Shown here: one piece after another, positions 987 to 54,200 of the stretch
Layout of the letters: the number at the start of each line of letters is the position of its first letter
How positions within the stretch are numbered: the first letter of the stretch is position 1
Position numbers and translations under genes: made by a program
Assembly: GCA_026770705.1 (NCBI GenBank)
Contig: JANJGN010000007.1
Location: 88,536,001 to 88,600,000 of the forward strand
Direction: 5' to 3'
Source of the DNA: Isurus oxyrinchus
Taxonomy: Eukaryota
DNA: 64,000 nucleotides
Notes under the pieces: model-generated
What the model saw: only the letters and a program-made list of their open reading frames with translations
Told to the model about the DNA's origin: nothing
Databases searched by the model: none

Positions 987-1192
987 AAAAGCAAAGTACT
1001 GCGGATGCTATAAATCTGAAATAAGAACAGAAAATGCTGGAAAATTACTCCTCTTCAGAGCTAAAGAGCCCATCCATTAGCTCCCTTTAGCTCTGAAGAG
1101 GAATCATATGGACTCGAAATGTTAACTCTGTTTCTCTCTTTACAGATGCTGCCAGACCTGCTGATTTTTTTCAGCATTTTCTGTTTTTATTT
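987..1192. mobile_element. Fold-back Penelope-end element (head-to-head PLE termini) with hammerhead-like motif
   Basis: Inverted PLE ends; perfect 17-bp inverted repeat at 1050-1066/1085-1101; CTGAAGA...GACTCGAAATGTTAACT at about 1089-1137. Confidence 0.75.
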
Positions 1193-2944
1193 ACTCATTT
1201 TTTTTATTTGGTTCTTACTTGCCTTTGGTTCTTTCCCCATTGATCTTAAATTAGACCCCTTTGCTTCTCAACCCTTCTGCCAATAAAAGTTTCTTATCAA
1301 GTCTCTCTAGGCCCCTCATGATTTTGAACACCCCTATCAAATCTCCTGTCAACCTTCTCTTACCTAAGGAAAATAGCCCCACATAACTGAAGACCCTCAT
1401 CCCTAGAATCATTCCTGTAAATCTTTTCTGCATTGTCCCTAATGCCTTCACATCTTTCCTAAAGTGTATTGCCCAGAATTGGACACAGCACTCTGGTTCA
1501 GGCTGAACCATTGTTTCATAAATGTTCACCATAAGAACGTAAGAAGAACATAAGAACTAGGAGCAGGAGTAGGCAATTCAGCCCCACGAGCCTGCCCCGA
1601 CATTCCATACGATCATGACTGATCTCATTTCGGCCTCAACTCCAATTTCCCGCCCTCTCCCCAGAACCTTTCAACCCATTACTAATTAAAAACCTGTCTA
1701 TCTCCTCCTTAAATTTATTCAGCGTTCCGGCATCCACTGCACTCTGAGGTAGTGAATTCCACAGATTCACGACCCTTTGAGAAAAGTAATTCCTCCTCAT
1801 CTCCGATTTAAATCTACCATCCCTTAGCCTAAAATTATGGCCTCTCGTTCTAGAATGCCCCAGAAGGGGAAACGTCTGCTCCACATCTACTTTATTTATC
1901 CCCTTTAGCACCTTATATACCTCAATTAGATCTCCTCTCAGCCTTCTAAACTCCAGCGAGTATAGGCCTAAACTCAATCTCTCCTCATAAGACAAGCCCC
2001 ACATCTCTGGAATCAATCTAGTGAACCTCCTCTGAACCTCCTCCAGTGCAACTACATCCTTCCTCAAGTAAGGGGACCAAAACTATGCACAGTACTCCAG
2101 GTGCGGTCTCACCAATGCCTTGTACCATTACAACAACACTTCCCTATTTTTATACTCTATTCCTTTAGCAATAAATGCCAAGATTCCATTTGCCTTCCTT
2201 ATTACCTGCTGTACCTGCATACTAGCTTTAAGCGAATCATGCACGAGGACACCCAGATCCCTCTGCACTGAAGCATTCTGAAGTTTCTCTCCATTTAAGT
2301 AATAAGTCACCTTTTTATTCTTCCGACCAAAATGGATAACCTCGCACTTATTCACATTAAACTTCATCTGCCAAATTTTGGTCCATTCACCAAACCTGTC
2401 CATATCCATTTGTAAAGTTCTTATTTCTTCATTGCAACTCACTTTCCCACCTATTTTGGTGTCATCTGCAAATTTAGCTGTAGTACCTTCTATCCCTGAA
2501 TCTACGTCATTAATATAGATTGTAAATAGTTGGGGCCCAAGGACCGAACCCTGTGACACCCCACTAGTTACAGCTTGCCATCCAGAAAAAGACCCATTTG
2601 TCCCGACTCTCTGCTTTCTGTTGGTTAGCCAATCCTCTATCCAAGCTAATATATTACCCCTAACTCCATGTGATCTTATCTAGTGTATTAATCTTTTATG
2701 CGGCACCTTATCAAAGACCTTCTGGAAGTCCAGATATACTACATCTACAGGATCCCCATGATCCACTTTGCTTGTCACATCTTCAAAGAACTCTAGCAAA
2801 TTAGTCAAACACGATTTACTCTTCATAAAACCATGCTGACTCTGATGGATTGCATATTGACTTTCCAAATGCCCCATTACTACTTCCTTAATAATGGATT
2901 CCAACAATTTCCCAATAACAGGCGTTAAACTAACTGGTCTATAG

Positions 2945-3867
2945 GGACACCCTGGTCCGCTCCTCAAACCCTTCCCACGGCACCTTCCCATGCAACCGCA
3001 GAAGGTGCAACACCTGCCCCTTTACTTGCGCCCTCCTCACCGTCCAAGAGCCCAAACACTCCTTTCAAATGAAGCAGCATTTCACTTGCACTTCCCTCAA
3101 TTTAGTCTACTGCATTCGCTGCTCCCAATGTGGTTTCCTCTACATTGGAGAAACCAAACGCAGATTGGGTGACCGCTTTGCGGAACACCTTCGGTCTGTC
3201 TGCAAGCATGATCCAGATCTCCCTGTTGCTTGCCCTTTCAACACACCACCCTGCTCTCATGCCCATATGTCCGTCCTTGGCCTGCTGCAATGTTCCAGTG
3301 AAGCTGAATGCAAACTGGAGGAACAGCACCTCATCTTCCGACTAGGCACTTTACAGCCTTCTGGATTTAATATTGAGTTCAACAGCTTTAGATTATGAAC
3401 TATCTCCTCCTTCCCCACCCCCTTTCCGATCCCCCTTTTTCCAATAATTTATATATATTTTTCTTTTCCCACCTATTTCCATTATTTTTAAATAATCCAT
3501 TGTTTTATTTCTACCTTTTAGCCTATTTCGATTCCCCCCCCACCCCAACCCCACTAGTCCTATCTGTCCCTTGCTCGTCCTGCTTTCCATCCTTAATGTC
3601 CCCATTAGCACATTTCTTAGCTAATATCACCACTGTCAACACCTCTTTGTCCTTTTGTCTATGACATCTTTTGGCAATCTCCACCTATCACTGGCCCTCT
3701 ATCCAGCCCTACCTGTCCCAGCACCCCCCTTTAAACCAGCTTATATTTCACCTCTTTTCTATTTTTCCTTAGTTCTGATGAAGAGTCATTCAGACTTGAA
3801 ACGTTAACTGTGTTCCTCTCCACAGATGCTGTCAGACCTGCTGAATTTTTCCAGGTATTTTTGTTTT
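2945..3867 (+). mobile_element. 5'-truncated Penelope-like element (GIY-YIG C-terminus plus terminal repeat) inserted in CR1
   Basis: ORF 3069-3398 LVYCIRCSQCGFLYIGETKRRLGDRFAEH. 10-bp TSD TGGTCTATAG at 2935-2944 and 3868-3877 splits the CR1 NYRPVSLT motif. Confidence 0.92.
3771..3809 (+). ncRNA. Minimal type I hammerhead ribozyme motif in the PLE terminal repeat
   Basis: AGTT-CTGATGA-A-GAGTC-attca-GACTT-GAAA-CGTT-AACT: intact CUGAUGA and GAAA core, stem I AGTT/AACT, stem II, palindromic ACGT stem III. Confidence 0.75.
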
Positions 3868-6329
3868 TGGTCTATAGTTTCCTACTTTCTGTCTCCCCAC
3901 CTTTTTGAATAAGGGCGTTATATTAGCATTTTTCCAATCCAATGGAACTTTTCTAGAATCCAGGGAATTTTGGAATATTATAGCCAATGCATCCACTATC
4001 TCCGCTGCCACTTCCTTTAAGACCCTGGGATGTAGGTCCTGGGGACTTGTCATCCTTTAATACCAATAGTTTGCTCAGTACCTTTTCTCTAGTGATGGTG
4101 ATTGTTCCTCCTTCTCTATACCCTCTGCACTACCTGTTACTAATGGGGTGGTACTAGTGTCCTCCACCGTAAAAACTGAGGTAAAATATTGATTAAGCAA
4201 ATCTGCCATTTCTGCATTCCCCACTATTAACTCCCCAGTCTCGTCCTCCAAGTGACCAATGTTCACTTTAGCTACTCTCTTTCCTTTTATATACTTGTAG
4301 AAGCTTTTGCTATCAGTTTTTACATTTTGCGCTAGTTTTCTTTCATAATTTACCTTTATTATTTTTTAGTAACCCTTTGTTGATCTTTAAAAGTTTCCCA
4401 ATCTTCCAACCTGCCACTGACCTTTGCAATTTGGTGTGTCTTAGTTTTTGCCTTTATGTGATCTTTAACTTCCTTGCTTAGCCATGGATGCTTTTTCCCC
4501 CCTTACCATCTTTCTTCCTTTTTGGAATATATTTTACTTGGGAGGAATTGAATATCTCCTTAAATATCTGCCACTGTTCATCAACTGTCCTACTTTGTAG
4601 TCTTCCTGCCCAGTTCACTAGGGCTAAATCTGCCCTCATACCTATGTAGTTACCTTTGTTTAAATCCAGAACACTAATGTGGGACTCAAGTTTCTTGCTC
4701 TCAAACTGAACTTGAAATTCTATCATGCTATGATCACTCTTCCCTAGAGAATCCTTTACTGTGAGATTATTAATTAATCCCATCCCATTACAAAAATCCA
4801 AATCCTTAATAACTTCCTTGCTTTTGTACTCTGACTTTATTTATGAAGCCCAGAATCCCATATACCTAATTAAGCACTTTCTCAATCTGCTCTGCCACCT
4901 TCAAAGATTTGTGCACATATACCTGGTCATTTCACACTACTTTGCATTAAATTTCATCTGCCATGTCTGCCTATTCCACCACCCTGTCTCTGTCATCTTG
5001 AAGTCTATCACCATGCTCCTCACAGATAAAATGCTTCCAAGTTTTGTGTCATAAATTTTCAAATTCTGTCCTGTGCACCCAAATCTAGGTCATTGATATA
5101 TATCAGGAAAAGTGGTGGTCCTAATACCTAGGGAACCCAACTATATACCTTACTCCAATTGGAAAACCAATCATTCACTGTTATTCTCTGTTTCCTGTTA
5201 CTCAGCCACTTTGTATCTCTGCTGCAACTGATCCTTTTATTTCAAGGGCTTCAACTTTGCTGACAAGTTTGTCATGTGGCATTTTATCAAGTCCCTTTTG
5301 GAAATCCATGTATACCAGATCAACCACAATACCCTCATCAACCTTCTATATCATGTCATCAAAAAACTCAATAAAGCTAGTTAAACACAATTTGTCCTCA
5401 ACAAATCTGTTCGCTTTCTGTCATTTATCCACAACTGCCTAACTGTCTTAAGTTTGTCCCAAATTATCATTTGTAAAAGCTTTCCCACCATCAAGGTTAA
5501 ACTGAGTTGCCTATAATTGTTGGGTTTATCGCTATACCTTTTTTGATCAAGGGTGTAATGTTTGCAATTCTCCAGTCCTCTGACACCACCTCTGCATCTG
5601 AGGAGGATTGGCAGATTAAGGCCATTGCCTAAGCAATTTCCACCCTTACTTCCCTCAGTATCCTTGGATGTATCTGATCCAGTCCTGGTGACTTATCAAC
5701 TTTTATTCTGGCCAGTCTCTCTAATAATTCTTGTTTATTAATTTTTAGTCCATTCAGTGTCTCAACTACTACTCTTTTATGATGAGTTCTGCAGTAAACT
5801 CTTCCTTGGTAAAGACAGAGGCAAAGTACTCATTTAGTACTCCAGCCATGTCCTCAGCCTCCATGCATAAATTCCCTTTTTGGTTCCTAATCAACCCCTC
5901 CTCTTACTACTCATTTACTATTTACAAGCCTACAGACACTTGTTGATTCCCGTTTATGTTAGCTGTCAGTTTCTTATATTCCCTCTTTGCTTCTTTTATT
6001 TCTTTTTTCCGCTTCCTGTCTGAACTTTCTATATTCAGCCTGGTTTTCACTTGTATTGTCAACATCATCTATCATGCACACCCTTTTTATCTTCATCTTA
6101 TTCTCACTCTTTCTTTAATCAAGGGAGCTCTGGCTTTCTTTGTCCTATCTTTCCTCCTTGTGGAATTGTACCTTGACTGTTCCAGAATTAAATCCTCTTT
6201 AAAGACAGCCCATTGTTTCATTACAGCTTTGTCTGACGGTCTTTGATTTCAGTTTATCTGGGCCAGGTCCTTTCTCACCCCGTTGAAACTGGCCCTCATC
6301 CAATTAATTATTTTTACTCTGGATTGCTC

Positions 6330-8640
6330 TTGAGAGTAAAATAGCAAGAAATAAAAATACAGAAAATAAGAGCTCTACAAATATACAAAAAGGAAGAGAG
6401 TAGATAAAGTAAACAATGGTCTGTTAGAAAATGATACTAAGGAATTAATAATGGGAAACAAGGAAATGGCAGAGACTTTGAACAAGTATTTTGTATTTAT
6501 TTTCATGGGAGAAGACACTGAAAGCATCCCAATAATAGAAAATTAGGAGGCAAAAGGGAGGGAAGAACTTAAATCGGTCATTATCACTGGAGAAAATGTA
6601 CTCGGCAAACTAATGTAACTAGAGGCTAACAAGTCCTTTAGACCTGATGGCCTGCATCCTAGAGTCATAAAGGAAATGGCTGTAGAGATAGTGGGTTTTA
6701 ATCTTCCAAAATTCCCTAGATTCTGGAAATGTTCCAGAGGATTGGAAAATGCAGGTATATTGCCCCTATTCAAGAAAGGAGGGAGATAGAGAGCAGCAAA
6801 CTATAGGGCAGTTTGCCTTACATCTGTTATGGGAAAAATACTAGAATCTATTATTAAAGAGGCAGTTGCAGGACATTTAAAAAGTAATACAATCAAGCAG
6901 AGTCAACAGGGTTTTATGAAATGGAAATCGTGTTTGACAAGTTTGAAGATTCTTTGATAAAGCAGGGTAGATAAAGGTGAAATAGTAGATGTGTATTTTG
7001 ATTTTCAAATGATATTCGATAAGGTCTCACACAAAAGATGACTGCAGAAGATAAGAGTTCATGGTGTCAGGGAGAATAAATTAGCATGGACAGAGGATTG
7101 ACTAACAGAAAACAGAAGGAGATAGGATAAATGGATCATTTTCAGGTTGGCATACTGTAACTAGTGGGGTGCCACAGGGATTAGTGCTAGGGCATCAACT
7201 ATTTATAATCTATATCAATGACTTGAATGAAAGTGTTGACTATATTGTAGCCAAATTTGCTGATGGTACAAAGACAGGTGGAAAAGCAAGTTGTGAGGAG
7301 GACATAAAGGCACGGATTTCAGCCATGGCGGAGAGGCTCTCCGTCGTGGCGAAAATCCCCGAAATGGCAGTAAATTTTGAGTCCCGCCTTTGAACCCAGC
7401 ATTTCCTATCCTCATGGGAGCAGGGCCCGAGTTGGGCCAAGGTTCACGCATGCGCGATTTGCGGAGGCAGCTGGCCGTTTAAATCACCAACTACCTCCAC
7501 TGAAGTGGGATTTTGGAAGAACAGGAGTGTGGAATCCTGAGTGTGCAGATTAGAACAAGTAAAAGGAGGTCTGAACTTGGTGGAAGTGTTTGGATAACCA
7601 GGGTAGCCCTTTGGGAGAGGTAAGGCACCCTTTAGGATTGTTAAAAGTGAACATGATTAGCACTTTTTGTGCACAAAATTGTTGGAATTGTCAAGCAGTC
7701 AAAGAGCTGTCCAGCTGTCAAGGAACTATCCAGCTGTCAAGGAAATATTAAGGAGCTGTCCAGCTGTCAAAGCTGTCAGACCTATCCAGGAAGTGTCAAG
7801 GCTTTCAGAGCTATCCAGGAAGTGTCAAAACTATCAAGGAACTGCCCAACAATACTAGGATACTAGGCGAGTTGGCATGGAGGGGGTAAGGGCAAAAGGT
7901 GGTGGGTGGGAGGGGCATGGATTGGTATGAGTTGGCACTAAGTTGCCATTGGGGTACGGGGCTATGGGGGGTGGGTGGGAGAACATGGGTTGACATGGAG
8001 GTATGGAGGCCATGGGGATTGGGTGGGGGGCATGGCCTTGCACCCAGCCCGCTTCCGCACCTGTGTGGGCATTCATTTCCGATTGCCCACCCTGACTCCT
8101 GTTGCAGCTCCCTCACCCCCTGACCAAATATCCAACCTGCGGGCGGATGTTTTTAAAAGTTGGGTTCGCCAAGCTGGGAGATCTCCTGATTCTGCGAACC
8201 CGACCCCAAGACGAATATCTAGGCCAAAGAGTCTGCTAAGGGATATTGATAGGTTCAATGAATGGCAAAAATTTAGCAAATGAACTGTAACATTTATCCT
8301 CTTTGGTAGGAGGAATACAAGAGCAAGATATATAAATAGAGAGAGACCACAGAACATTGCGGTGGAGAGGGTTCTGAAGGTCCTTGTACTTGAAACGCAA
8401 AATGTTAGCGTTCAGGTGCAGCAAACAACTAGGTCAGTAAATGGAATGCTGCCGTTTATTACAATGGGAATGAATATAAAAGTAGGGAAGGTGGATTCTG
8501 AGGAGACTTGACAGGGTAAATGCTGTTAGACAGCATGGCTTCTGAATGAGGGGCTGCCTATTTAAGATACCCCCTCAACAGAAGGAATTTCTTATCTCAG
8601 TGGGTAGTGAATATGGAATTCTCTATCCCCGAGAACTGAG
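6330..8640 (+). mobile_element. Degraded CR1 LINE ORF2 (approximate bounds), interrupted by a Harbinger MITE
   Basis: PQGLVLGHQLFIIYINDL..KFADGTK; frame EEDIK|SLLRDIDR resumes after the insertion. Confidence 0.85.
7309..8225. mobile_element. PIF/Harbinger-like non-autonomous element
   Basis: Imperfect TIRs GGCACGGATTTC / GAATATCTAGGCC; 3-bp TSD AAA; internal about 19-bp repeat (AGGAGCTGTCCAGCTGTCA) at about 7700-7850. Confidence 0.75.
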
Positions 8641-8649
8641 GGCTGAGTC

Positions 8650-11600: not shown

Positions 11601-11910
11601 CACCATCTCCCCAGTCATGCACTTATCTGCTCTATCCTCCTATTTCTATACTCACTAGTATGTGGCACCAGAAGTAATCCAGAGATTACTACCCTTGAGA
11701 TGCTGCTTGCCAGTTTCTTTCCTAACTCCCTAAAATCTACCTGCTGGACCCTAGTGCTTCTTTGTACCTATCTCACTGGTATTGAGGTAAACCATGACCA
11801 CTGGTTGTTCACCTTTTCCACTCAGTACTCTACAGCTGCTCAGTGACATCCTTTATTTTGTCACAGGGAGGCAACATACCATCCTGGACTCTCATCTGCA
11901 GAAATGCCTG
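8650..11910 (-). mobile_element. Degraded CR1 LINE fragments including ORF2 and ORF1 esterase-like region (approximate bounds)
   Basis: KSLGPDGLHPRVL and QYGFTKEKSCLT peptides; reverse strand near 11650-11700 reads VVISGLL.VP, typical of CR1 ORF1 esterase. Confidence 0.75.
10357..11286. mobile_element. Harbinger-like MITE with G-rich interior
   Basis: Loose TIRs GGGACTGAACTTCTG / CAGAAACACTGCCC interrupting the CR1. Confidence 0.5.
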
Positions 11911-11996
11911 TCTGTTCATTAGGACTGTAAAATTCTCAAGCAGCTAGATGAGCTTGGCAATCATTTTGTGGCTGTGCAAGCATTGGTGTACTCTAA

Positions 11997-12787
11997 AATA
12001 AAGCAAAATGCTGCAGATGCTGGAAATCTGAAACAAAAACAAAAATAGCTGGAAAAACTCAGCAGTCTGACAGCATCTGTGGTCTCCTTTACATTGGAGA
12101 GACCAAATGCAGACTGGGTGACCGTTTTGCGGAACACCTTCGGTCTGTCTGCAAGCATTACCCAGACCTCCCTGTTGCTTGCCATTTCAACACACCACCC
12201 TGCTCTCATGCCCACATGTCCCTCCTTGGCCTGCTGCAATGTTCCAGTGAAGCTCAACGCAAACTGGAGGAACAGCACCTCATCATCCGACTAGGCACTT
12301 TACAGCCTTCCAGACTTAATATTGAGTTCAACAACTTCAGATCCTGAACTCTCTCCTCCATCCCCACCCCCTTTCCGATCCCCCTTTCTCCAATAATTTT
12401 TTAAAAAAGTATATTTTTTCTTCTCCCACCTATTTTAAAATCCACCTTTTAGCCCATTTTGATCCCTTCCCCCCCACCCCACCCCCACTAAGGCCATCTG
12501 CCACTTGCTTGTCCTGCTTGCTACCCTTAATGTCGCCATTAGCACATTCCTTTGATAATATCACCACTGTCAACACCCCTTTGTCCTTTTGTCTATGACA
12601 TCTTTAGCAATCTCTTCTTTGCCCCCACCTATCCAGCTCTGCCTGTCCCACCCCCCTCTACCAGTTTATGTTTCACCTCATTTCTCTATTTCCTTAGTCC
12701 TGATGAGTCATTTGGACTCGAAATGTCAACTGTGTTCCTCTCTGCAGATGCTGTCAGACCTGCTGAGTTTTTCTATTTTTGTTTTTG
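11997..12787 (+). mobile_element. Penelope-like element with an inverted terminal copy at its 5' end
   Basis: Inverted end at 11997-12080, GIY-YIG fragment, hammerhead-like CTGATGAGTC..GACTCGAAATGTCAACT at about 12696-12731; 14-bp TSD TTGGT(G/A)TACTCTAA at 11983-11996 and 12788-12801. Confidence 0.88.
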
Positions 12788-13000
12788 TTGGTATACTCTA
12801 ATGTGGTCCTGTACAACAATAGGAACAAGTTGCATGTATATAACACTTTTAATGTAGAAAAACAGGCAAAATCAAAAGAATGGCACCAGACCATAGAAGA
12901 AAGTATTCAAAGGGATGACCAAAGACCAAAGTCCAAGTTAGGAAAGCAAAAGCAAGGGGAAAATAAGACTAAAACTGAAAGCTGCAAAGAGAAAAGGAAA

Positions 13001-13743
13001 GGTTTCCTCTACATTGGAGAGACCAAACGTAAACTGGGCGACTGCTTTGCAGAACACCCGCGGTCTGTCCGCAAGAATGACCCAAATCTCCCTGTCGCTT
13101 GCCATTTTAACACTCCACCCTGCTCTCTTGCCCACATGTCTGTCCTTGGCTTGCTGCATTGTTCCAGTGAAGCCCAACGCAAACTGGAGGAACAACACCT
13201 CATCTTCCGACTAGGCACTTTACAGCCTTCCGGACTGAATATTGAATTCAACAACTTTAGGTCGTGAGCTCCCTCCCCCATCCCCACCCCCTTTCTGTTT
13301 CCCCCTTCCTTTTTTTTCCAATAAATTATAAAGATTTTCTTTTTCCCACCTATTTCCATTATGCAAAACAACACCCCCACTAGAGCTATACCTTGAGTGC
13401 CCTACCATCCATTCTTAATTAGCACATTCGTTTAGATAATATCACCAACTTTAACTTTAACACCTGTGTGTTCTATTGTACTATTGTCGTTGACATCTTT
13501 TGATGATCTGCTTCTATCACTGCTTGTATGTCCATACAACCACACCCCTCCCCACCTCTCTCTCTCTCTCTATCTCTCTGCCCCCCACACACACACCTTA
13601 AACCAGCTTATATTTCAACTCTTTCTTGGACTCACACTCAAGTTCTGTCGAAGGGTCATGAGGACTCGAAACGTCAACTCTTTTCTTCTCCGCCGATGCT
13701 GCCAGACCTGCTGAGTTTTTCCAGATAATTCTGTTTTTGTTTT
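13001..13743 (+). mobile_element. Young 5'-truncated Penelope-like element
   Basis: GFLYIGETKRKLGDCFAEH...EFNNFRS; 11-bp TSD AGAAAAGGAAA at 12990-13000 and 13744-13754; hammerhead-like motif at 13641-13679. Confidence 0.92.
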
Positions 13744-13754
13744 AGAAAAGGAAA

Positions 13755-14830: not shown

Positions 14831-14931
14831 GATGAACCTTTTAGTTCCCACTTACCTGAAGCGCTCTTCAACATTTCCAGATTTTTACTTCACAATCTTA
14901 CAAAAGAAACTCCTTTGGGCATCTCCAAGGT
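14831..14931 (+). CDS. IFT122: IFT122 internal coding exon ([34 protein letters not shown])
   Basis: Acceptor ttttttgcag ends at 14830. Translation matches the recalled vertebrate IFT122 segment ([13 protein letters not shown]...TPSGISKV). The exon ends in phase 2 before the U12 donor GTATCCTTT at 14932. Confidence 0.95.
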
Positions 14932-15039
14932 GTATCCTTTTGTCACTTGAGCTATTTCATATGCCAGAAATAAAAACAGAAAATGCTGGAAATACACAGC
15001 AGGTGAGGCAGCATCTGTGGAGGGAGAAACAGCATTAAT

Positions 15040-15801
15040 GGGCTGGATTTTACCGGTGGTGGGGGGAGGGGGCAGACTGCTCGTCCTCCGAGAAGGAAAG
15101 TCAGCCAGCAGCCAACACACTGGCAAGAAGCCTGCCTGGCAGCTATAACATGCTGAGGGTGGGCTAAACTAGCTGACATTCAGACTTCCTCTCCTCAGTG
15201 GGAGGAAATCCCACCCTCGAGAGTTGCCAGTCAATCAAATTGGCCAGCAACTCCAGCAGTCCCTGAGCACTAGAGCTCAGTGGTGGGCGCTGCTTGGACT
15301 TCAAGAGAGAGCATGAAGGAGATCAATGGCTACCACAAAAAGGTAAGTCCCAGGCTTTTAGGGTGAAGAGCTATCTGGGAACCTGGGAGTGGGGAGAGTG
15401 GGGTGCAGCACCTTGATTTTGGAGGGCAGGCGAAAAGAAGGAACTGGGGGTGACATCTTAGGGAGGACGCCCCAATGTACACAGGGCATGTCTCCAAATG
15501 AAGTGTCACCTTCCCGCCATTTCTCATCTAAGCCACAATAAACAGCCTGCCCACTCCCAGCTGCCTGCCCATGCCAACCTTATTATGGCATGGGCAGTGT
15601 ATTATCTCAATCAATAGACTTGTTGACAAGCCTAATTGATTTTTAATTATTCATTTAAATATGTTGGGTGGGCTGCCAATTATGACACCTGCTCACCTAG
15701 TGTATAATGGGGCTCAGCTCAAGGGTGGACAGGTAAGGTGGTGGGCTAGCCAACCCCCTTGCCAAAAACACTCCGAGTGGCGGGACTGTAAAATCCAGCA
15801 C
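15040..15801. mobile_element. Harbinger-like MITE inserted into an antisense PLE end fragment (about 14965-15835)
   Basis: TIR GGGCTGGATTTTAC / GTAAAATCCAGCAC; TSD AAT at 15037-15039 and 15802-15804. Confidence 0.85.
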
Positions 15802-17349
15802 AATGTTTCAGATCAATGACCTTTCATCAGAATTGGAAAAAGTTTAGCTGATGTTTGCCAGGATCAGAAAGTATTGATTGTTTTAATGTGACCTACTCAA
15901 TATGGTTTTGATACAGTTGGCATCATCATAGGAGAGATAATGGAAAGACAGATGCTGTTGATTTATTTGTAACCTGGGTGCTACTATATAGTATTCCTGC
16001 TAAGCTGCACGGTTATGTGGCAATGCATCAGCTACCCAAATTTTGTTCCGTGATAACTGATAAGTGTGCAAAGCCATGCAAAAATATTTAAAGGGACGTC
16101 ACACTGAAAAATATTGGTCACATACATCTAAATTTTAAAGGGAGATTACTACTTGCTATACAGCAACATTGAATTTTATGCAAGCCTCCTCGGATGTGAC
16201 AATTGCTACCAATTCTAAATGTCCAATTTGGGCATTAATTTTAATAATGCAAATTAATTAAAAGGAGGAGTTGACCTGAGGCTAAGTGGTTGTTGGAGCT
16301 GAGACTTTCACTGTAAGTACTGCTTGTGTTTGACTTCTGAAATTTTTCAAAATGTTCAGCAATGTACATGCACAAAAAGTTAGCATTTGGTGCTACAGTG
16401 CACCATGACACATAGGGTGTAAAATATGGGCTTACAGGCTACGATTCCCTCAAATAGTGGCTTTCCCACCTCATTCTTGTAAAAGCTACTAAAAGTGGCT
16501 AGATATTTACTTGGGAAGAAAGGAAGGCTGGTCATGGGGGGGGGGTGGTGGGCAGTGACACAGGTGTTCACAATCATGCTAAAACGTTAGTGGAGAGCTG
16601 AGAGTAGGGTATCTGAGTGCCCTCAAGGCTAGGATAAGGTATGAAAGAACTGCTGGTGCCAGTGGAACTGTACCCTAGCAAGTCAGTGCCTTCAGCAGAG
16701 GAGGGAAAACTGAGTTTGAGCCCAAATATGACCAGTGGATGGTGGGTCATAGTGCAGCGTATTGGGATGGCTAGAGTAAAGATAGAGAGCTGTATGCCAG
16801 GATGGACTATATCACAAACAAAATATTGGTTGGGTTCAACATCTAGCTCAGTGTTGAAACGAGGAGAGCAGAAATTCCATGCCCACCAGCCTTACTTCAA
16901 TCCATGTCAGTTTGAGCATTGTAATGCATATAATGAACCAGAATGGGACCAATGAATAAAACATTCAAATATAAAAATGGAATAACTTCAAACTTCATTT
17001 TAAGCCTGTAAAACTGGCACTTCTGAGGCAAGTTTTTGTGAGCCATCCCTGAATTTTAAGCATATCCCAATGATCTTTAGTCTGTACATGGCAATGAGGC
17101 TCTAACAATATGGAACATAATTCCTGAGCTGATCATCATAGCAGGCAGGCAGATTATCATCCCACCCATTAAAGGAGTGAACAATGCAGGTGCAGCTGGT
17201 TCCTGTAGACAAATCCCTATTAAAGTTTATGCATTCAGTGTACCTTAGCATGTCTTGCATTGTTGCATTGACTTGCATTGTTTATGTACTGCGGAACCCA
17301 CTTCTATATCTTGCAGTTATGCAATGTGTTCTGGACAAGGTTATTCTTT

Positions 17350-21094: not shown

Positions 21095-21260
21095 TAATAC
21101 TTTATATGCTCTTGCCAAACAAAGTAAGGCACTGGGTGCGTACAAACTGGCTCGGCATGCCTACGACAAACTACAGGGCCTGCGCATTCCTACCAGGTTT
21201 CAGGAGTCCATCGAACTAGGTAGCCTGACGATTCGATCCAAGCCATTTCATGATAGTGAG
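21095..21260 (+). CDS. IFT122: IFT122 internal coding exon ([55 protein letters not shown])
   Basis: U12 branch point TTCCTTAAC at 21077-21085, CAG acceptor ending at 21094, donor GAG|gtgagg at 21261. The phase-2 join (GT+T = Val) keeps frame with the previous exon. Confidence 0.95.
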
Positions 21261-23459: not shown

Positions 23460-23571
23460 GACTTTGTACCTATGTGCTATAGGTGTTCAACTAACAACCC
23501 ACTACTCAACAACCAGGGAAACGTGTGCATCAACTGTCGGCAGCCCTTTGTGTTCTCTGCTTCCTCCTATG
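23460..23571 (+). CDS. IFT122: IFT122 internal coding exon ([37 protein letters not shown]), CxxC...CxxC zinc-binding motif
   Basis: Acceptor tgtacacag ends at 23459; donor G|gtgagt at 23572; near-identical to the recalled IFT122 peptide. Confidence 0.95.
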
Positions 23572-24079: not shown

Positions 24080-24330
24080 ACAAGCAAAGATAGAAAATGC
24101 TGGAGTAACTCAACAAGTCAGGCAGTATTTGTGGAGAGAACAGAGAAGTCAACGTTTCAGGTACAGAGACTTCAGCAAAACTGAATGATGTTATAGATGA
24201 ACAGCATTTACAAAGGAATGGGGCAGGTGGGAGGGGGAGAAATATCAACCCACAGAAGAAAACAAATAGAATGACTTGTAAATGGAGAACAGCAGATGAC
24301 TGAACAGTAGAAATTATATCAGCATGAGAC
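24080..24330 (-). mobile_element. PLE terminal-repeat fragment (approximate bounds)
   Basis: gaaaatgctggag..ctcaacaagtcaggcag..aacgtttcag matches the other PLE ends in antisense. Confidence 0.6.
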
Positions 24331-28533: not shown

Positions 28534-28637
28534 AAATAAAAACAGGAAATGCTGGAAAAACTCAGCAAGTCTGTTACCATCTGTGGAGAGGGAAAGAGAG
28601 TTAACGTTTCAGGTCAAGTTGACCTTTTATCAGAACT
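28534..28637 (-). mobile_element. PLE terminal-repeat fragment with hammerhead-like motif
   Basis: Reverse strand agttCTGATAAaaggtc..gacctGAAACGTTaact. Confidence 0.7.
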
Positions 28638-32220: not shown

Positions 32221-32223
32221 AGA

Positions 32224-40450: not shown

Positions 40451-41144
40451 ATGCACAAGCACACACATCAGAAGTAAGAAAGAATATATGAGTAAGTCCT
40501 TTGCTTGTCCATGAGACATAGATTGTGGAACGTTATGGCCGTTGAAGTTAGATGGTTTCTTGTAAAATTCTGGAGTTGACTTTGTTCAGGTCTGCACTTT
40601 GTTGAAGACACTCTGGCTTCAGAGGTAGAGAGGGAGAAAGAACAAGATCTTTCTTGCTGTTTCTCAGCAGAGTTTCTTAGATGACTGTCATGTTTCTTTT
40701 CCTGCCTTTCCATCTTTCTCTGCCTGGCAGAGCAAATTTTAAACTAATTTTTGTATATTCCTGGAAGGGAATTCAATTAATATGTCTTGCATCCATTGTT
40801 GTAGTTACCAGGTTTTTGCTCTTTCATCTCAGAAACCTTTTGACACATTTTTGAGATATAAATCAACATGAGATGGGGTTGTTTTGTCCTCCACTGGGGG
40901 TTTGGAGTGTCTGGTGGGGTGTAACTGCTGGGTAGCAGTTAACATTGTCTTCACAGATTTAGAGTGAATTAAAAGCCCAGCACTTTGCATTTTCAGGGCC
41001 TTCTTTTCAAGATTCCCTGTTTGAAGTAGGCCTTGACACCCCACCTTGGATGTGAATTCCATGTAACATCTTAAAGCAGTTCTACAGTGCAATCCTTATA
41101 GGAACTTTCCGGAAAAGTGGTCAACCTACAATATCAGACATCAG

Positions 41145-41385
41145 AGTTGAAAACAAAGAAAACTGCGGATGCTGGAAATCTAAAACAAAAACAGAATTAC
41201 CTGGAAAAACTCAGTAGGTCTGGCAGCATCGGCGGAGAAGAAAAGAGTTGACGTTTCGAGTCCTCATGACCCTTCGACAGAACTTCTGTCGAAGGGTCAT
41301 GAGGACTCGAAACGTCAACTCTTTTCTTCTCCGCCGATGCTGCCAGACCTACTGAGTTTTTCCAGGTAATTCTGTTTTTGTTTTT
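41145..41385. mobile_element. Very young fold-back PLE-end insertion (perfect 101-bp palindrome)
   Basis: Arms 41182-41282 and 41284-41384, 1-nt spacer; 15-bp perfect TSD AATATCAGACATCAG at 41130-41144 and 41386-41400. Confidence 0.95.
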
Positions 41386-41827
41386 AATATCAGACATCAG
41401 GTGACTGCTGGTATTCACCTTTGGTCAGTGTCTTTTGTTGTATTTTAAAAAAAAGCAGGTCCTCTTTAAACAATTTTACATGTCTTTGGTTAGCTGGTGA
41501 AGTTGTAGGTAGTTCTCACTCAGTCACTGTTTCCTGTCAATGTGACACAATGCCTGGTGAATGCAGAATCAAGCTCGGTCATGATGGACCCAGTGACTTT
41601 TCAGGATTAGAAAGGGGGAACGGTAATTAAATGAGTTTCTAGGACTCTGCTAGATAGAAGGGAAGGCAAAAGTTGGGGGAAAAATAAGAATAGTTACAAT
41701 AATGCAGCATTTCCTTAAACTACTTCTTCCTAAAGGTCTATAATGAAACCCAGGGCTTGAATCAGATGAGGTACACACTAGGTTCCACAGGTCTATCATC
41801 TCATGAGCTTTATTGTTGTGTTTACAG

Positions 41828-41956
41828 AGGTGCTGCCGCTTGTTCAGTTCTATTTGGAAGAAGGGATTATGGATGAGGAAGCAGTGGCCCTGATTGATCG
41901 TGAGGTGCCCAGGACAGAACTGAAAAAGGACGGGTGGCAAGAAAAGAACATTGGCG
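41828..41956 (+). CDS. IFT122: IFT122 internal coding exon (EVLPLVQFYLEEGIMDEEAVALIDREVPRTELKKDGWQEKNIG)
   Basis: Acceptor tttacag ends at 41827; phase-1 join G+AG = Glu; the exon ends before GTATCCATTT at 41957. Confidence 0.92.
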
Positions 41957-43006
41957 GTATCCATTTTGTAGTATTACCCTGTGTGAAGTGGGCAGCTCAT
42001 TGAAACACTAACATGTAGTGTAACAGAGTGTTGCCCACCTACCAATTGCCAGGCTTTGTTACACTGCAGTGGGACAGGGCCAAGACTTGGCTGGAAAATA
42101 AGAGGGAAAGTCATCTCTAGATCACACTTGAGCATCCCCCATATACTCCTTCAGTCAGAGCTTGGATCACATCGGTCATGGATATATGTTGCTAACAGAG
42201 TGTTGGGGGAGGGGGGGTGTTGGGCGTGGAAATAAAGTATTGAGAAAGAATAATTAGAATATAAATACCTCGTCAATTATTAACCCTTGGCTTAATTTCT
42301 GTACTTTTGGAGTATTAAACAGCGGTGTTACTAATAAGGAAAGTTGTTAGCAGTTGCCAGTGTGGGCTGTGCCTGCTGCTGGTGCAAATCTAACTCCCTG
42401 TGCCACCCAGATTAAGAGCATGAAATAAACTAGTTACAACACAGGCTGTTGAGTGGCTCATCAGCCCTAATAATTGAGGTAAATAATGCTGTGGCCACTG
42501 AGTTAGTGGAGATTTTCAAGGTTAATGACAATTGCCAGGAGTTGGAAAGTGGATATCCATAGCCATGCAGTGGCTGTTGTCAAGGAAGATGAGCTAGCTC
42601 GTCCACAGCTCACCTTGGGGCTGGTAGATTACATCATCAGCAAGGCTCACCTTAGCACCTACAACACAAATCCTGCTGCAGATTTTAGCTCCAACCCACT
42701 GTACCTCATATCCAATTAATTATTTTGGGGTGTGGGTAGGCAAAGCTCGTCTCACAGGCAGCAATGAGTGACATTGACTCTGTTGTAACACTCTAATGCC
42801 TGAATCAAAAGGTTGTCAGTTCAAACTCCACTCCAGAGACATTAGCACATAATTCGGTGCAGTACTGAGTATGTACTGTATCATCAGAGGTGCCATCTTT
42901 TAGGTGCTGTGACTGATGTTCAGTTATGCTGCTGAACTAAATTACTTTTGGTTATGAACTTGTATTTTCCAATATGCTTTGAAACATTTCCTTGGCACTT
43001 TTGTAG
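41957..43006 (+). other. Probable U12-type intron with degenerate signals
   Basis: Donor GTATCCATTT (consensus GTATCCTTT); branch-like TTTCCTTGGCAC at 42987-42998 close to the AG. Confidence 0.65.
42780..42905 (+). mobile_element. 5' fragment of Deu-type SINE (approximate bounds)
   Basis: Similar to the head of 29308-29450 (tgagtca..ctccactccag..gcagtactgag). Confidence 0.55.
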
Positions 43007-43083
43007 ATGCACAGACTCTACAGCTTGAAGACAGTATGGCCAAGATTGAGGCAGATCCATTCACTGCAAAACTGAGCTTTGAG
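43007..43083 (+). CDS. IFT122: IFT122 internal coding exon (DAQTLQLEDSMAKIEADPFTAKLSFE)
   Basis: Acceptor ttttgtag ends at 43006; donor GAG|gtaact at 43084; DPFTAKLSFE is a recalled IFT122 motif. Not in the ORF track, read manually. Confidence 0.92.
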
Positions 43084-43179
43084 GTAACTTGCTGTTAAAT
43101 TAACATACATATGTATGAATCATTTGAGTAATTTTCATCTGACTTCACAGGAAAGGAAGAAGACAAAATACCATTGGTA

Positions 43180-43865
43180 CAAAAGAAGATAAATCAAGGG
43201 GCGGGTGTGGGATCTTATTGAATTTATTAGTTTTTTTAAAAAAACTAATAATGGTGAATGTGATGAGACTGTGATCTTTTGACTTGGAACGATCTAGGTA
43301 GTTTCACCCCAGGATATTAAATGGTGTAGATAAGGACATTGCAGATGTGTTGGTCATTATATTCTAAAGTTCTCTTGATTGGGGAATTACGCTATTGAAT
43401 TGGGAAATTGCAAACATCACTTTATTACTTAAGACAGGATGGAAAAATCTGTCCGTCCAATGTCAGTTGTAGGAAAATAATAGTCATTAGGGACAGAAGA
43501 ACTGAGTACTTGAATTGGTCAGAATCAGCACGTGTTTGTGAATGGTAGGTCATGTCTGGCTTTTTAGTTGTACTTTTTGAGGAGGCCACTGGCATAGATA
43601 AGGGATAGTCTCTGGATGTTACTTATATGTACTTTTAAGAAGCATTTGATCAGTTTTTGCACTAGAGATTGTCTTAAGAAATGAAATACAACAGAATTGG
43701 AGCAAGCCTGCACCATGGGTTGGAAATTGGCTGGAGGTAGGAAACAGAAAATTGAATGAAGTTTAATTGTCAGGAAGTGACAAGTGGTGTTCCACAGGGA
43801 TCGGGGCTGTGGCCTCAGCTTTTCACCGTACCCAGTGACTTGGATGAGGGAATTGAGAGCTGTGT
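43180..43865 (+). mobile_element. Degraded CR1 ORF2 fragment (approximate bounds)
   Basis: aagtggtgttccacagggatcgg RT motif and ttgggaaattgcaaacatcac. Confidence 0.65.
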
Positions 43866-44209
43866 TTAACAATTTTCAGATAAGGCACAGACCTTCTGAC
43901 CACAATAGCAGCAAATGAAGAGATTTCCACTGCTGTTGAGGGTCGCAGTGGCATTGGAAGTTGCAGGCAGTAGATTTACACTCGAACTCCACACTTCCAT
44001 TTTGGCGAAAATACTTCCATGGAAACCGGTAGTGATGGTTCGCCTGTGAACCGTCAGCATGTAAACTTTGCCTATTTGCTCAATGTTACATTGTTTGATA
44101 TCCTGAATTATTAGCGCTGTTCCTAGCGTAAAGTGTAAAGCTTGTGACAGATGTGCAGACATTTAAATCAGGAAGTGTGTCAAAGCACTGCAGCATCCCA
44201 CCACAATTG

Positions 44210-47200: not shown

Positions 47201-50200
47201 GAACTGCACGCCTCCCCCACCCGACACTGCTCGCCCACCTCACCTGACACCGCTCGCACCCCTCCACCCGACACTGCTCGCTCCCTCCACCCGACACTGC
47301 TCGCTCCCTCCACCCGACACTGCTCGCTCCCTCCACCCGACACTGCTCGCACCCCTCCACCCGACACTGCTCGCTCCCTCCACCCGACACTGCTCGCCCC
47401 CCCCCACCCGACACCGCTCTCCCACCCGATACCGCTGGCCCCCTCCACCCGACATCGCTCACCCCCCCCACCCGACACTGCTTGACCCCTGACCCGACAG
47501 CACGCGCCCCCCCCCCACCCGACATCGCTCGCCGCCCCCACCAGACACCGCTCGCCCCCACCACCCGACACCGCTTGCCCCCTCATCCGACACCGCTCAC
47601 CCCCACCACCCGACACCGCTTGCCCCCTCACCCGACACTGCTCACACCCCCCTCACCTGACACTGCTCGACCTCCCCACCCGACACCACTCACCCCCAAC
47701 CCAAACTGCATGCCTCCCCCATCCGACACTGCTCGCCCCCCCACACCCGACATTGCTCGCCCCCCCCACCCGACACTGCTTGCCCACGTCACCCGACACC
47801 GCTCGCACCCTCCACCCGACACCGCTCGCTTCCTCTGCCCGACACCGCTCGCTTCCTCCGCCCGACACTGCTCGCTCCCTCCACCCGACACCGCTCGCTC
47901 CCTCCACCCGACACCGCTCGCACCCCTCCACCCGACACTGCTCGCTCCTTCCACCCGACACTGCTTGCCCCCCCCCCACCCGACACCGCTCGCCCCCCTC
48001 CAACCAACACTGCTCACCCCCCTCACCCGACACTGCTCACACCCCCCTCACCCGACACTGCTCGCCCTCCCCGCCCGACACTGCTTAGCCCCCCCACCCG
48101 ACCACCTCATCCGACACCACTCGCCCCTTCAGCCGACACTGCTCACCACCCCCCACCCAAAACTGCACGCACCCCCCAACTGACAATGCTCGCCTCCACC
48201 ACCCGAGACTGCTCGTCCCCCCCACCCGAGACTGCTCGCCCCCTCAACCCAACACCGCTCGACCCCCTACACGACACCGCTCGCCCCCGCAACCCGACAC
48301 CGCTCACCCCCCCCCACCCGACACTGCTCGCACCTCCCCAACCGACAATGCTCGCCCACCTCACCCGACACTGCTCGCCCCTCCTCACCCGACCACCTCA
48401 CCCGACACCGCTCGCCCCCCCCACCCGACACCGCTCGCCCCCTCCACCCGACACTGCTCAGCCCCCCATCCGACACCGCTCGCCCCCTCCACCCAAAACA
48501 GCTCAACCCCCACCCGACACCGCTCGCACCCCACACCCGACACCGCTCGCCCCCCCCCCCCCACCCGACACCGCTCGTCCACCTTACCCCAGACCGCTCG
48601 CCCACCTCACCCGACACCGCTCGCACCCGACACCGCTCGCCCCCCCCCCCCACCCGACACCGCTCGCCCTCTCACCCGACACCGCTCACCCCCCCACCCG
48701 ACACTGCTCGCACCTCCCCAACCGACAATGCTCGCCCACCTCACCCGACACTGCTCGCCCCTCCTCACCCGACCACCTCACCCGACACCGCTCGCCCCCC
48801 CCACCCGACACCGCTCGCCCCCTCCACCCGACACTGCTCAGCCCCCCATCCGACACCGCTCGCCCCCTCCACCCAAAACAGCTCAACCCCCACCCGACAC
48901 CGCTCGCACCCTACACCCGACACCGCTTGCACCCTACACCCAACACCGCTCGCACCCCTCCACCCGACACTGCTCAGTCCCTCCACCCGACACTGCTCGC
49001 TCCCTCCACCCGACACTGCTTGCCCCCTGACCCAACACCGCTCACCCCCCCACCTGACCCCGCTCGCCCGCCCCCACCCGACACTGCTCGCCACCCCCCC
49101 ACCCGACACTGCTCGCCCCCCCTCCACCCGACACTGCTCGCCCCCCTCCACCCGACACTGCTCGCTCCTTCCACCCGACACTGCTTGCTCCCTCCACCTG
49201 ACACTGCTCGCCCCCCTCCACCCGACTCTGCTTGACCCCTGACCCGACACCGCTCGCCCCCCCCCCACCCGACACCGCTCGCCCCCCCCCCCCCACCCGA
49301 CACCGCTCGTCCACCTTACCCCAGACCGCTCGCCCACCTCACCCGACACTGCTCGCACCCGACACCGCTCGCCCCCTCCACCCGACACCGCTCGCCCCCT
49401 CCACCCGACACCGCTCGTCCCCCCTTCCCGACACCGCTCGCCCCCCTCCACCCGACACCGCTCGCCCCCTCCACCCGACACCGCTCGCCCCCTCCACCCG
49501 ACACCGCTCGTCCCCCCCTTCCCGACACCGCTCGCCCCCTCCAGCCGACACCGTTTGCCCCCCGACCCAACACCGCTCACCCCCCCAACCCCAACTGCAT
49601 GCCTCCCCCAACTGACACTGCTCGCCCGCAGCTCCCGACACTGCTCGCCCCCCCCCCTCCACCCGACACTTCTCACTCCCTCCACCAGACACTGCTCGCC
49701 CCCTGACCCGACACCGCTCACCATCCCCACCTGACACCGCTCGCCCCCCTCCACCAGACACTGCTCTGGCCCCCCACCCAACACAGCTCACCCCCCCACC
49801 CGACACTGCTCTGCCTCCCCACCCAACACAGCTCACCCCCCCACCCGACACGGCTCTGCCCCCTCCACCCAACACAGCTCACCCCCCCACCCGACACTGC
49901 TCTGCCTCCCCACCCAACACAGCTCACCCCCCCACCCGACACGGCTCTGCCCCCTCCACCCAACACTGCTCTGCCCCCCCACCCAACACTACTCACCCCC
50001 TCCACCCGACCACCTCACCCGACACAGCTCACCCCCCCACCCGACACGGCTCTGCCCCCTCCACCCGACACTACTCACCCCCTCCACCCGACCACCTCAC
50101 CCGACACAGCTCACCCCCCCACCCGACACTGCTCTGCCCCCTCCACCCAGCACTACTCTGCCCCCCCACCCAACACAGCTCACCACCCCCTACCCAACAC

Positions 50201-51250: not shown

Positions 51251-51259
51251 TGTCGATAA

Positions 51260-54200
51260 GGTCATGGAGAAATAGGTAGCAACAGGATTATGAACATCAA
51301 CCAAATTTCTGACAGATATTGGTGAGGAATTTGCGAATGAGGAATTTTGAGATGTGTGAAAATTTGAATATCATAGTTATGCACACTATGACTGTGAGCC
51401 CGTTCAGTAATAGTTGTGCAAGAGAAATCATGCAGTGATAGACGACATGTAGCATAAAATATTGACTGATCAACCAGATTGCAAATTGCAAATGGCACTG
51501 GTATGGGCAGTATATGCAAAGAACTCTTTGTAAATTGGGGGTGCACACTCTGTATGAATTGGTGTATGGAAGGAATTCAAAGTTGCATTTGGTGTTATCA
51601 GATGCTCCCCCTGCTCTAGAAGGGACTAGCATTAGCTCCACTTATTCTGCTCATCTGAACATGTGGGCAGAAAAGCTTTCATCAAAGCTGAAGTTTTGGA
51701 GAAAATGCGGCGAGCCTTACAGCACTGCATAAGACCATCAGGAATACGGTTTAGCCAAGCAGACATGATATATTACAAAAGAGAAGGCCAGAAAGAGTGG
51801 AAAGTCCCTGGCAAAATGATAGGCAGTGATGAAAAAGTAATAATTGTACAATACGGAATCAAACTGTTAGGGTACATTCTTCGAGGTTAATTGGCACTGA
51901 CTATACCTTTACAGGTTCTGACCAGGACATAGAAAGTGAAGAGGCGCCATACACTTCACGTACAAATTTATTGGGCAGTTGTGAGGAGCAGACTACGGTG
52001 GATAGAGGGATAACTGATGATGAGTAAAGTAACACTGAGGCACAGGATAAGGCTATTTATCCAAAAGGGCAACTACCCAAAGTAGGAACAAAGGTAACAT
52101 ACATGCCAGAAGAGACCAGTGTGTGGAAGGATGTCACCATCATAGGGAGAGCAGGAAAGGCTACTGGGAAATACAAACATTAGCTAAATTTGCAGGATGA
52201 AGGACAAGAGACAAGACCCATGGATTGGCAAAACGAGGTGAAGATGTAGAAGGCCAGAAAATGCGGTGTGAGTTCTGACAGTGGACCAGAAAGTGGTCAT
52301 GAGCCCTGGAAAAGATCTCAGACTTGTGAAAGGAATTCTAATCACATGCAGGAAAGATCAAACAGCAGTGGCCCAGAAAGAGAGAGGATTGTGAGTAGCT
52401 TGACAAGAACGAGGACTACAGAACTAGCTGGGAATGTCAATAGAAGTAGAAGCCCTTATGATTGAGAGGTTTTAGGAGCTGCTAATAAATTGGAAAATAA
52501 ACTGATAAACGAAGCCAAACAAAAAGAGTTGGACAGTTGGAAAGAATTTGGGGTATGCACTGATATACCAGACAGGGGTATGCTCGTATACAGCCAGCTT
52601 CATCACACAGGTGGATATATACAGAAAAAGTTATTCCGGACAGCATGTACAATGTTAAAGCTAGACTGGTAGCTCGAGGTTTTGAAGGAAGAGTTGGGAT
52701 CAAGATGTCAGGGTGGGCTCTCCTACTGCAGGGAAAGTGAGCTTGAAGATTTTTAAAACTATTTTAGCATCATATTCCTGAGAGTTCAGATTAATTGATA
52801 AAAAAGCTGCATTTTTTGCAGGGTGAGAAATTTCAAAGGGAAGTATTTTTCAAACAACCTAAAGAAGCTGGTGGTATAAAAAGAAAGTTGTAGAAATTAA
52901 ACAAGTGTGTTTATAGGTGAATGATGCATCAGGATTATGGTATTTTTCTGTGAGGTCTGTCCTGTTGAAACCAGATTGCGTTAAGTTAAAGGCAGACCCT
53001 GCGATGTTCTACTGGCATCACAAGGAGAAACAAGCAGGGACCTTTATCATGCATGTTGATGATTTCCTGTGGGGAGGTTCTGTAGAATTTGAGCAATAGG
53101 TGACCGATAAAGTAAAGAAGGAATTTAAGTTTGGAAGTCAGCCTTCAGGGGCCTTTAAATACAGAGGTTTATATATTAAGCAGAGCAAGTCAGGAGTAAC
53201 ATTGAATCAACAATCTTATTTAGAAAATGTCAATCATATCCCAATAAATCGGGTCAGATCCTCACAAAAAGAGAATCCTGCATTCAAAGAAAAAAACAGA
53301 CAAATTAAGAAATTTGGTTTGACAATTGAACTGGTTGTGCACTCAGACTAGACCTGATGTCAGTTATATCATATTGGCACTGAGCACTATGATGAAACGT
53401 GCTACATCTGAGGAAGTCCTGAGAGCAAAGAAATAAATTAAATTTGGAGAAATGCATACTCAAGTTTCTAGCCATGGGTGATCCAGAAGATATGAAGTTA
53501 GTCATTTTTAGCGATGCTCCAATGCCAAATTTCCAGATGGATTCTCTAGCACGGCAGAGTTATCATATTCTTGGTGGGAAAGAATGATCAAAGTTGTCCA
53601 TTGGCCTGGGAGGCCATGAAAATAAAAAGGGTAGTTAAAAGCACCATAGCTGATGAAACACTCGCTTCTACCAAGGCCATAGGTATGGGGCTGTACTTAT
53701 TCAATATACTGACGGAAATACTATACAAGGGGCAATGTGAGAAAAGTTCACCCATAGAATGCTATGTGGATAACCATTCTCTTTCAGATAATGAGAAGGG
53801 AGATCGCTAAGATACGATGTGTTGACACAAGTCACCAACTATCAGATTGTTTTGCGAAAAGAAATGCCTGCTCCAAGAAACGTTTTGGAAGAGGGGTGCA
53901 AAATGCAAAAGTGATTTTTTTTGCTTTGTAATGTTTATATAAATGGTAAAGGGAATGTAGAATCTATAATGTGAAAATTGGTGACTTTGTTTCCTGGAAA
54001 AACTCAACAGGTCTGACAGCATCTGTGGAGAGAGAAACAGGTGATGTTTCGAGTCCGTGTGACCCTTCTTCAGAGCTACCAGACCTGCTGAGTTTTTCCA
54101 GCATTTTATGTGTTTGTTTCAGACTTCCAGCATCTGCAGTATTTTGCTTTTAATTTTGTTTTCTTTTGTTTAATTTGAAAGATGTTCTTGAATTTTTCAA

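Follow-up and report, generated by a model that had tools for sequence, protein, structure and literature searches.

Minimal hammerhead motifs in IFT122 introns of a shark are probably passengers of an abundant Penelope-like element

Do copies of a self-cleaving RNA motif that lie within the introns of a protein-coding gene cut the pre-mRNA of that gene, or are they simply left there by a transposable element? The question is raised by a 64,000-nt stretch of the genome of the shark Isurus oxyrinchus (assembly GCA_026770705.1, contig JANJGN010000007.1, positions 88,536,001 to 88,600,000; hereafter the window), for which a first-pass annotation had described ends of Penelope-like elements with minimal type I hammerhead ribozymes (min-HHRs), whose stem III is a short palindrome, inside introns of IFT122. 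This description was borne out. All the sites it had listed were recovered, and the total is now ten motif-bearing copies, five on each strand. The ten motifs are very probably min-HHRs of an abundant Penelope-like lineage, which were left by separate insertions and, as likely passengers, would cut the pre-mRNA seldom if at all. Their location in IFT122 is incidental. The min-HHR class at Penelope ends is already known (it was described in 2014), and the real oddity is an expansion dominated by copies with U at core position 6 (U6).

Window copies were found with a loose core search and a profile built from seven of them. The motif consists of a 4-bp stem I, CUG-N-N-GA, one unpaired A, a 5-bp stem II and GAAA-CG-U-H. 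A search against Rfam, which had been proposed as a check, gave no window match at the gathering score, and no hammerhead was among the four weak matches at E<=10 in positions 1-16000. The 39-mer at 13641 occurs in exact form 52,044 times in the 4.98-Gb genome (26,036 on the plus and 26,008 on the minus strand), in contrast to a reversed control with no match, so the motif is not a product of chance. Two of the window copies belong to this identical subfamily, which argues for their recent insertion.

Preservation differs among the copies. The core had been given as CTGA(N)GA-like, and this holds for the older copies at 1089 and 3771 (CUGAUGA in the latter), whereas A6 is altered in 13641 and both 41.2-kb copies, which read CUG-U-C-GA. 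Even in 3771, the G10.1-C11.1 pair has decayed to G.U; its putative cut lies after position 3805. The 1089 copy has a C.A mismatch in stem I, another mismatch in stem II and a palindrome decayed from ACGU to AUGU, and in a fold of the surrounding +/-150 nt its core is predicted to pair with the inverted arm at 987-1066, the unpaired probability being near 0. A 3-nt deletion between core and stem II in the 12696 copy means that the two cannot both form. The antisense motif at 54039-54077 has an A6 core, but its stem I is broken and its ACGU palindrome is gone. The sites listed earlier at 15030 and 15810 are parts of one copy, interrupted by ~776 nt that do not belong to it; in contigs that stem from other copies, 15029 is joined to 15806. 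At 41.2 kb, two 115-nt arms are 95% complementary and are flanked by a perfect 15-nt direct repeat (at 41130 and 41386); the sense motif of this pair (41282) is U6, has a broken stem I and is predicted to be buried in the 115-bp hairpin.

For the structure test, a sequence profile and pair counts were applied to 87 distinct sequences from 116 motif-covering copies sampled in genes (the remainder were duplicates or could not be parsed to 36-41 nt). Stem II cells were paired in 90.6% and stem I cells in 72.6%. The closing pair of stem II was GC in 52 copies, AU in 14, GU in 14 and other in 7, and the next pair occurs as GU, AU or GC. Stem I is AGUU/AACU in the main families and is broken in truncated heads and in a subfamily with AGCU as the 5' arm. 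In the palindrome (A15.1-C-G-U16.1), the A-U pair is kept in 82 of 87 copies and the C-G pair in 49, with 19 decayed to U-G. The covariance check suggested with the first-pass annotation gave a divided answer: the score of 0.196 beats 499 of 500 shuffles, but the number of two-sided pairs (4) does not exceed that in shuffles (mean 5.1). The swap of stem II between families represents one inherited event, and a single stem II pair shows two-sided change. As judged from this alignment, structural support is real but rests on few inherited family differences.

The AGCU subfamily recurs at 1089-1127, 54039-54077 and several sampled loci, and its C.A mismatch lies beside the cut site. In it, a second lineage with a weakened fold has spread.

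These features agree with the published min-HHR consensus, which has an extra nucleotide after A9, G10.1-C11.1, GAAA-CG-UH and a 4-bp stem I (PMC4209133). Like the metazoan min-HHRs described by Cervera and De la Pena (2014, PMC4209133), the shark motifs are of type I with a 4-bp stem I, a palindrome for stem III and G10.1-C11.1, and they occur mainly as dispersed single copies from truncated elements; opposite-strand pairs 100-700 bp apart are also described there. The shark host is a difference, as the part of the supplementary alignment examined holds no shark row. Another is abundance, with ~10^5 pattern matches in the shark vs 4,000-9,000 in coelacanth and Xenopus (PMC4209133), although search methods differ. 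Finally, the dominant shark subfamily is U6, whereas the published rows seen are A6 and came from a descriptor with fixed catalytic boxes (PMC4209133).

To read the anatomy of the source element, six genomic loci were chosen for their long frames. Long copies encode a reverse transcriptase (RT), a CX4CxxC linker and a GIY-YIG endonuclease in one frame, followed by a 3' untranslated region (UTR) and the motif, which is located ~100 nt from the element end. In a 593-aa frame (locus L056), Pfam detected RVT_1 with E=1.1e-8 and GIY-YIG with E=1.3e-3, the latter below the Pfam cut-off; over three long-copy frames, RT and GIY-YIG were each found in two. The 154-aa endonuclease end gave 142,863 first-look candidates in the genome, 150 of which were scored. 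In the window, motifs 3771, 12696 and 13641 sit behind GIY-YIG ends. The copy at 2960-3872 aligns with a long copy over 959 nt at 87% identity, and its GIY-YIG match (E=5e-4) is again below the cut-off. The motifs at 1089 and 54077 and the 41.2-kb pair belong to inverted insertions of the element end only, that at 1089 spanning 987-1192. Target-site repeats were searched for at nine insertions: two were convincing (15 and 11 nt), four were doubtful 8-nt repeats and three insertions had none.

Among the 116 sampled gene copies, 26 form head-to-head inverted pairs. Such pairs would make long pre-mRNA hairpins whatever the strand of the gene and are possible editing substrates.

A CX2-5CxxC linker between RT and GIY-YIG defines the Neptune/Nematis type, and 5' truncation, inverted adjacent copies and tails are typical of endonuclease-bearing Penelope-like elements (PMC8557442). 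On the basis of its sequence, the source of the window copies is assigned to the endonuclease-bearing (EN+) Penelope-like elements of Neptune/Nematis type. It shares with these elements (Craig et al. 2021, PMC8557442) the domain order, the extra Cys/His residues, 5' truncation, an inverted copy, a short tail and a hammerhead in the pseudo-long terminal repeat (pLTR), and shows no structural difference from them as they are described there. The Poseidon element PAc of Anolis is likewise a vertebrate Penelope-like element and has a pLTR hammerhead beside the start of its open reading frame (ORF); however, Poseidon is another clade, without the linker, and PAc activity has been assayed whereas the shark copies are known from sequence (PMC11167929). 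Non-LTR retrozymes, which are tandem head-to-tail non-coding hammerhead units, were considered and rejected, as copies in the window are either scattered or inverted, with ORF ends attached to several of them.

The repeat also has splice-like signals (3755-3772 and 3810-3860 in the window, 6470-6560 in long copy L059): a pyrimidine tract with AG at the 5' arm of stem I, a pyrimidine tract with CAG before an ATG, and CAG/GT further on. In sense orientation they could act as cryptic sites. In Penelope of D. virilis, an intron end at helix I has been described (PMC4209133).

We then consider the host gene. Two cartilaginous-fish IFT122 proteins were compared by tblastn with the window and 100 kb on each side. 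IFT122 exons are collinear on the plus strand from 89.6 kb upstream of the window to position 61,844, seven of them within the window. A frame at 21009-21293 matches solved IFT122 chains (PDB, E=3.9e-23), and the best database match of this exon is a catshark protein (100%). The assumption that the 5' part of the window is an IFT122 intron was confirmed, as one exon ends 2,378 nt upstream of the window. Motifs 1089, 3771, 12696 and 13641 share one 17.2-kb intron in sense, which runs from this point to 14,830, and the sense motif at 41282 lies two introns beyond it. The exon map supports the claim that five sense copies would be co-transcribed in IFT122 pre-mRNA. In run X2 (presumed RNA), exon 21095-21258 is directly followed by 23458-23571 within one contig (record positions 2822-3099), with 3 differences in 164 nt. 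Over this junction, the contig fits a full-length spliced IFT122 mRNA.

It had further been proposed that two sense copies pair in cis and cleave the intron. Four sense copies in one intron offer the setting for this, and an intronic ribozyme can tune a host mRNA, as found for CPEB3 (PMC10919898). Only one of the five sense copies (3771), however, has a canonical core with foldable stems. Because in a double hammerhead the core of one copy cuts the site of the other, the only complete pairing is that in which 3771 acts on 13641; on paper the two can form a full double hammerhead in which both stems I and the stem III have 4 bp each, and the U6 of 13641 would, from the geometry of the dimer, not block its role as substrate. 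Against this, the two copies are 9.9 kb apart and would be held by 12 mostly A-U pairs, G10.1-C11.1 is lost in 3771, and the site in 13641 lies ~1.15 kb before the next acceptor, a distance covered in ~20 s if the mammalian rate given in PMC10919898 is applied. In a nearest-neighbour model, the 3771-13641 dimer is 5.3 kcal/mol worse than the separate folds, and the double hammerhead is disfavoured for all 15 pairs (by 3.8-17 kcal/mol); the model has no tertiary or protein terms, and dimer energies were given little weight. Published min-HHR dimers and trimers cleave weakly, even when the units are adjacent (PMC4209133). Cleavage by the Anolis PAc ribozyme takes place only with its protein and is dispensable for insertion in vitro, and no RNA-seq ends were found at its site (PMC11167929). 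Unlike a conserved host element, the young copies were inserted recently. Host-retained intronic ribozymes (the hepatitis delta virus-like CPEB3 ribozyme and the RECK and C10orf118 hammerheads) are similar in that a sense self-cleaving motif lies in an intron of a protein-coding gene, but each of those occurs once, is conserved across species and acts as a monomer, whereas the shark motifs are multi-copy transposon ends, either young or decayed, that need a partner. Cleavage of the IFT122 intron in cis often enough to matter is, in our view, very improbable.

A strand census in genes bears on the same point. We sampled 120 stretches of 10 kb between collinear exon matches in 18 myosin and ion-channel genes, together with the IFT122 span (1,351,800 nt and 19 genes in total; gene extents were taken from Pfam matches, not from annotation). 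Matches of at least 25 bits numbered 70 sense and 84 antisense (p=0.30). The motif-covering copies were 53 sense and 63 antisense (p=0.40), with 9:9 in the IFT122 span, and 40:50 after removal of the 26 copies in head-to-head pairs (p=0.34). Controls gave 58:56 for RT of LINEs (long interspersed nuclear elements) and 20:19 for Penelope endonuclease. Sense-sense and antisense-antisense pairs within 10 kb numbered 11 and 10, respectively. There was hence no significant strand bias and no significant depletion of sense-sense pairs (19 genes, 1.35 Mb; modest power), and the loss of sense copies or pairs that might attend cis cleavage was not seen in the sampled introns. In the other direction, a preprint describes depletion of tandem retrozymes from Xenopus introns (10.64898/2026.07.22.740005). 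The density of motif-covering copies in the sampled genes was 86/Mb, or ~4x10^5 genome-wide if representative, and the motif load of IFT122 is ordinary because of this. When all features were strictly required, none of the 116 intragenic copies passed with A6 and 25 passed with U6 (12 of them sense).

The U6 core was counted genome-wide with one pattern in which only position 6 was varied; this pattern favours young copies and omits the AGCU-stem subfamily. Within these bounds, 95,216 of 102,541 matches (93%) are U6, 4,740 are A6 and 2,585 are C6 or G6. The 116 sampled gene copies comprise 47 with U6, 26 with A6, 7 with another base and 36 without a recognisable core. An older family with a different stem II has just 42 exact-pattern matches in the genome. 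Taken as they stand, the sequences indicate that the element multiplied after the core base change, with the predicted fold kept.

In published work on other hammerheads, position 6 matters. A6C is weak in Mg2+ and good in Mn2+ (PMC7151607, PMC3088659). With the exception of the C3-G8 swap, U-turn mutants are reported to have low activity (PMC9901934). The phage Bcep176 hammerhead also has a natural change at core position 6, but there it is C, in a single phage ribozyme that has been assayed, whereas the shark base is U (PMC3088659, PMC7151607). A literature search, with Lunse et al. 2016 outside its scope, found no natural U6 hammerhead core and met "A6U" only in a twister paper; a search combining Penelope, shark genome and hammerhead ribozyme found nothing.

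Two simple accounts of U6 were considered. Spread of A6U through removal of an upstream AUG in the core is rejected, as loop II of the youngest subfamily contains a new AUG (13641-13679). Monomer folds show an inhibitory helix between core and cleavage site, but the idea that U6 offsets it is not supported, since copies with the older stem II also have U6, together with U7 and U17.

It is possible, though doubtful, that the U6 subfamily is an active natural variant, rescued by the element protein or Mn2+, which processes a tandem element transcript while intronic copies are bystanders. The 52,044 identical copies have an intact palindrome and intact stems I and II, L059 carries U6 in both of its repeats (3.3 kb apart), the natural A6C variant cleaves well in Mn2+ (PMC7151607), and PAc cleavage is assisted by protein (PMC11167929). 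The identity of the young copies, on the other hand, reflects recent descent and not selection, covariation support is found between families only, and the spread of the second subfamily with its stem I mismatch fits relaxed constraint. Activity confined to the element's own RNA, which we likewise hold only tentatively, would widen the hammerhead core consensus. Since ~10^5 near-identical copies share the dimer palindrome and about half of those in genes are sense, a further step is conceivable, in which U6 works with protein or metal help and intronic copies pair with neighbours or with element RNA, nicking pre-mRNAs genome-wide, that of IFT122 included, at a low rate; we regard this as quite improbable.

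The motif might instead be functionless in the young lineage and carried along merely as part of the terminal repeat, an option no less doubtful than an active U6 variant. Of the matches to the pattern, 93% have the core change fixed, and Naiad elements thrive without canonical hammerheads, the authors suggesting that hammerheads may merely parasitize elements (PMC8557442). However, across the subfamilies seen, the pairing of stem II is maintained and G12-A15.1 is unchanged, whereas loop II and positions 6, 7 and 17 are variable; therefore the fold still looks constrained.

The explanation that we favor is that of mostly silent passengers. Separate 5'-truncated or folded-back insertions would have left the motifs in IFT122 introns. 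In the element's own RNA the motif would act as a dimer, the core of one copy cutting the site of the other; such cleavage would be weak, probably occurring only with help of the element protein, and the U6 core of the youngest subfamily would weaken or abolish it. To judge from more than 50,000 recent U6 insertions, fast cleavage may be less important for copying than the fold or the sequence. Several points weigh against this explanation. The 95% confidence interval of the sense fraction is 0.34-0.55, so that moderate depletion is compatible with the strand test, and well-folded A6 copies (1 sense, 4 antisense; p=0.38) are too few to judge. Splicing may tolerate the cleavage of an intron, and strand bias would then not be expected; a literature search on this point brought up no more than the CPEB3 case and one further title. 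The energy model counts against the young subfamily's homodimer too (+4.5 kcal/mol) and so discriminates poorly. The mutant data come from other hammerheads, and none of those examined reports A6U.

The IFT122 finding itself matters little, as any large gene of this genome holds many copies (~86/Mb). A subfamily that grew to more than 50,000 identical copies after the change of A6, by contrast, is a natural test of what hammerheads do for the element, in which A6 and U6 can be compared for cleavage and retrotransposition, and the strand census is a first sign, of modest power, that sense intronic copies are not strongly selected against. Coordinates are collected in Table 1.

Table 1. Element copies, min-HHR motifs and IFT122 exons in the window
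Feature	Position	Strand	Remarks
Inverted arm of 1089 insertion	987..1066	-	Element tail and short inverted hammerhead head (1051-1066); from sequence
min-HHR	1089..1127	+ (sense)	A6; core predicted to be sequestered by its own inverted head
5'-truncated Penelope-like copy	2960..3872	+	GIY-YIG end (to 3398), 3' UTR, pLTR end
min-HHR, best preserved	3771..3809	+ (sense)	CUGAUGA core, 4-bp stem I, ACGU palindrome
5'-truncated Penelope-like copy	12078..12789	+	Short inverted tail at 12030-12082(-)
min-HHR, broken	12696..12731	+ (sense)	Profile match; stem I mismatch at first pair; AUGU
Young 5'-truncated copy	12990..13754	+	Bounded by 11-nt direct repeat, likely target-site duplication
min-HHR, dominant young subfamily	13641..13679	+ (sense)	Stems intact; CUG-U6-C7-GA; putative cut after 13675
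IFT122 exon	14831..14931	+	aa 909-942 of P0007; tblastn 100%; AG and GT ends; closes 17-kb intron
Old antisense copy, split	14968..15834	-	Tail 14968-15032, head 15806-15834
IFT122 exon	21095..21260	+	PDB IFT122 match, tblastn
IFT122 exon	23460..23571	+	tblastn, contig
Decayed pLTR end with motif remnant	24083..24182	-	Motif 24147-24182; absent from first-pass list
Antisense pLTR end	28534..28637	-	Motif 28599-28637; older AGGUC/GACCU stem II family; G8 -> A
Young head-to-head inverted insertion	41130..41400	both	Two U6 motifs: 41246-41284(-), 41282-41320(+)
IFT122 exon	41785..41955	+	tblastn span, ends approximate
IFT122 exon	43006..43083	+	tblastn span
Inverted insertion	53980..54152	both	Antisense motif 54039-54077 and sense tail without motif
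IFT122 exon	59663..59878	+	tblastn span
IFT122 last coding exon	61758..61844	+	tblastn span

Other repeats were also observed. Fragments at 25299-26382(+) and 13762-14504(-) resemble other, more distant Penelope-like RT or endonuclease families, and LINE-type RT remnants are located at 1636-2679(-), 4075-4840(-) and 36180-36849(-), with an RVT_1 match of E=3.3e-13 for 2128-2676. Approximately 3,100-3,400 nt upstream of the window (locus L031), an IFT122 exon is directly followed by its own 3' end (YYYWMLSM...) in five or six tandem copies, which are partly decayed; some contain stops, and they may offer alternative donors. A very long C-rich minisatellite with a 23-nt unit (239 register copies) occupies ~37,160-50,200, in the IFT122 introns that flank the 41.8- and 43.0-kb exons.

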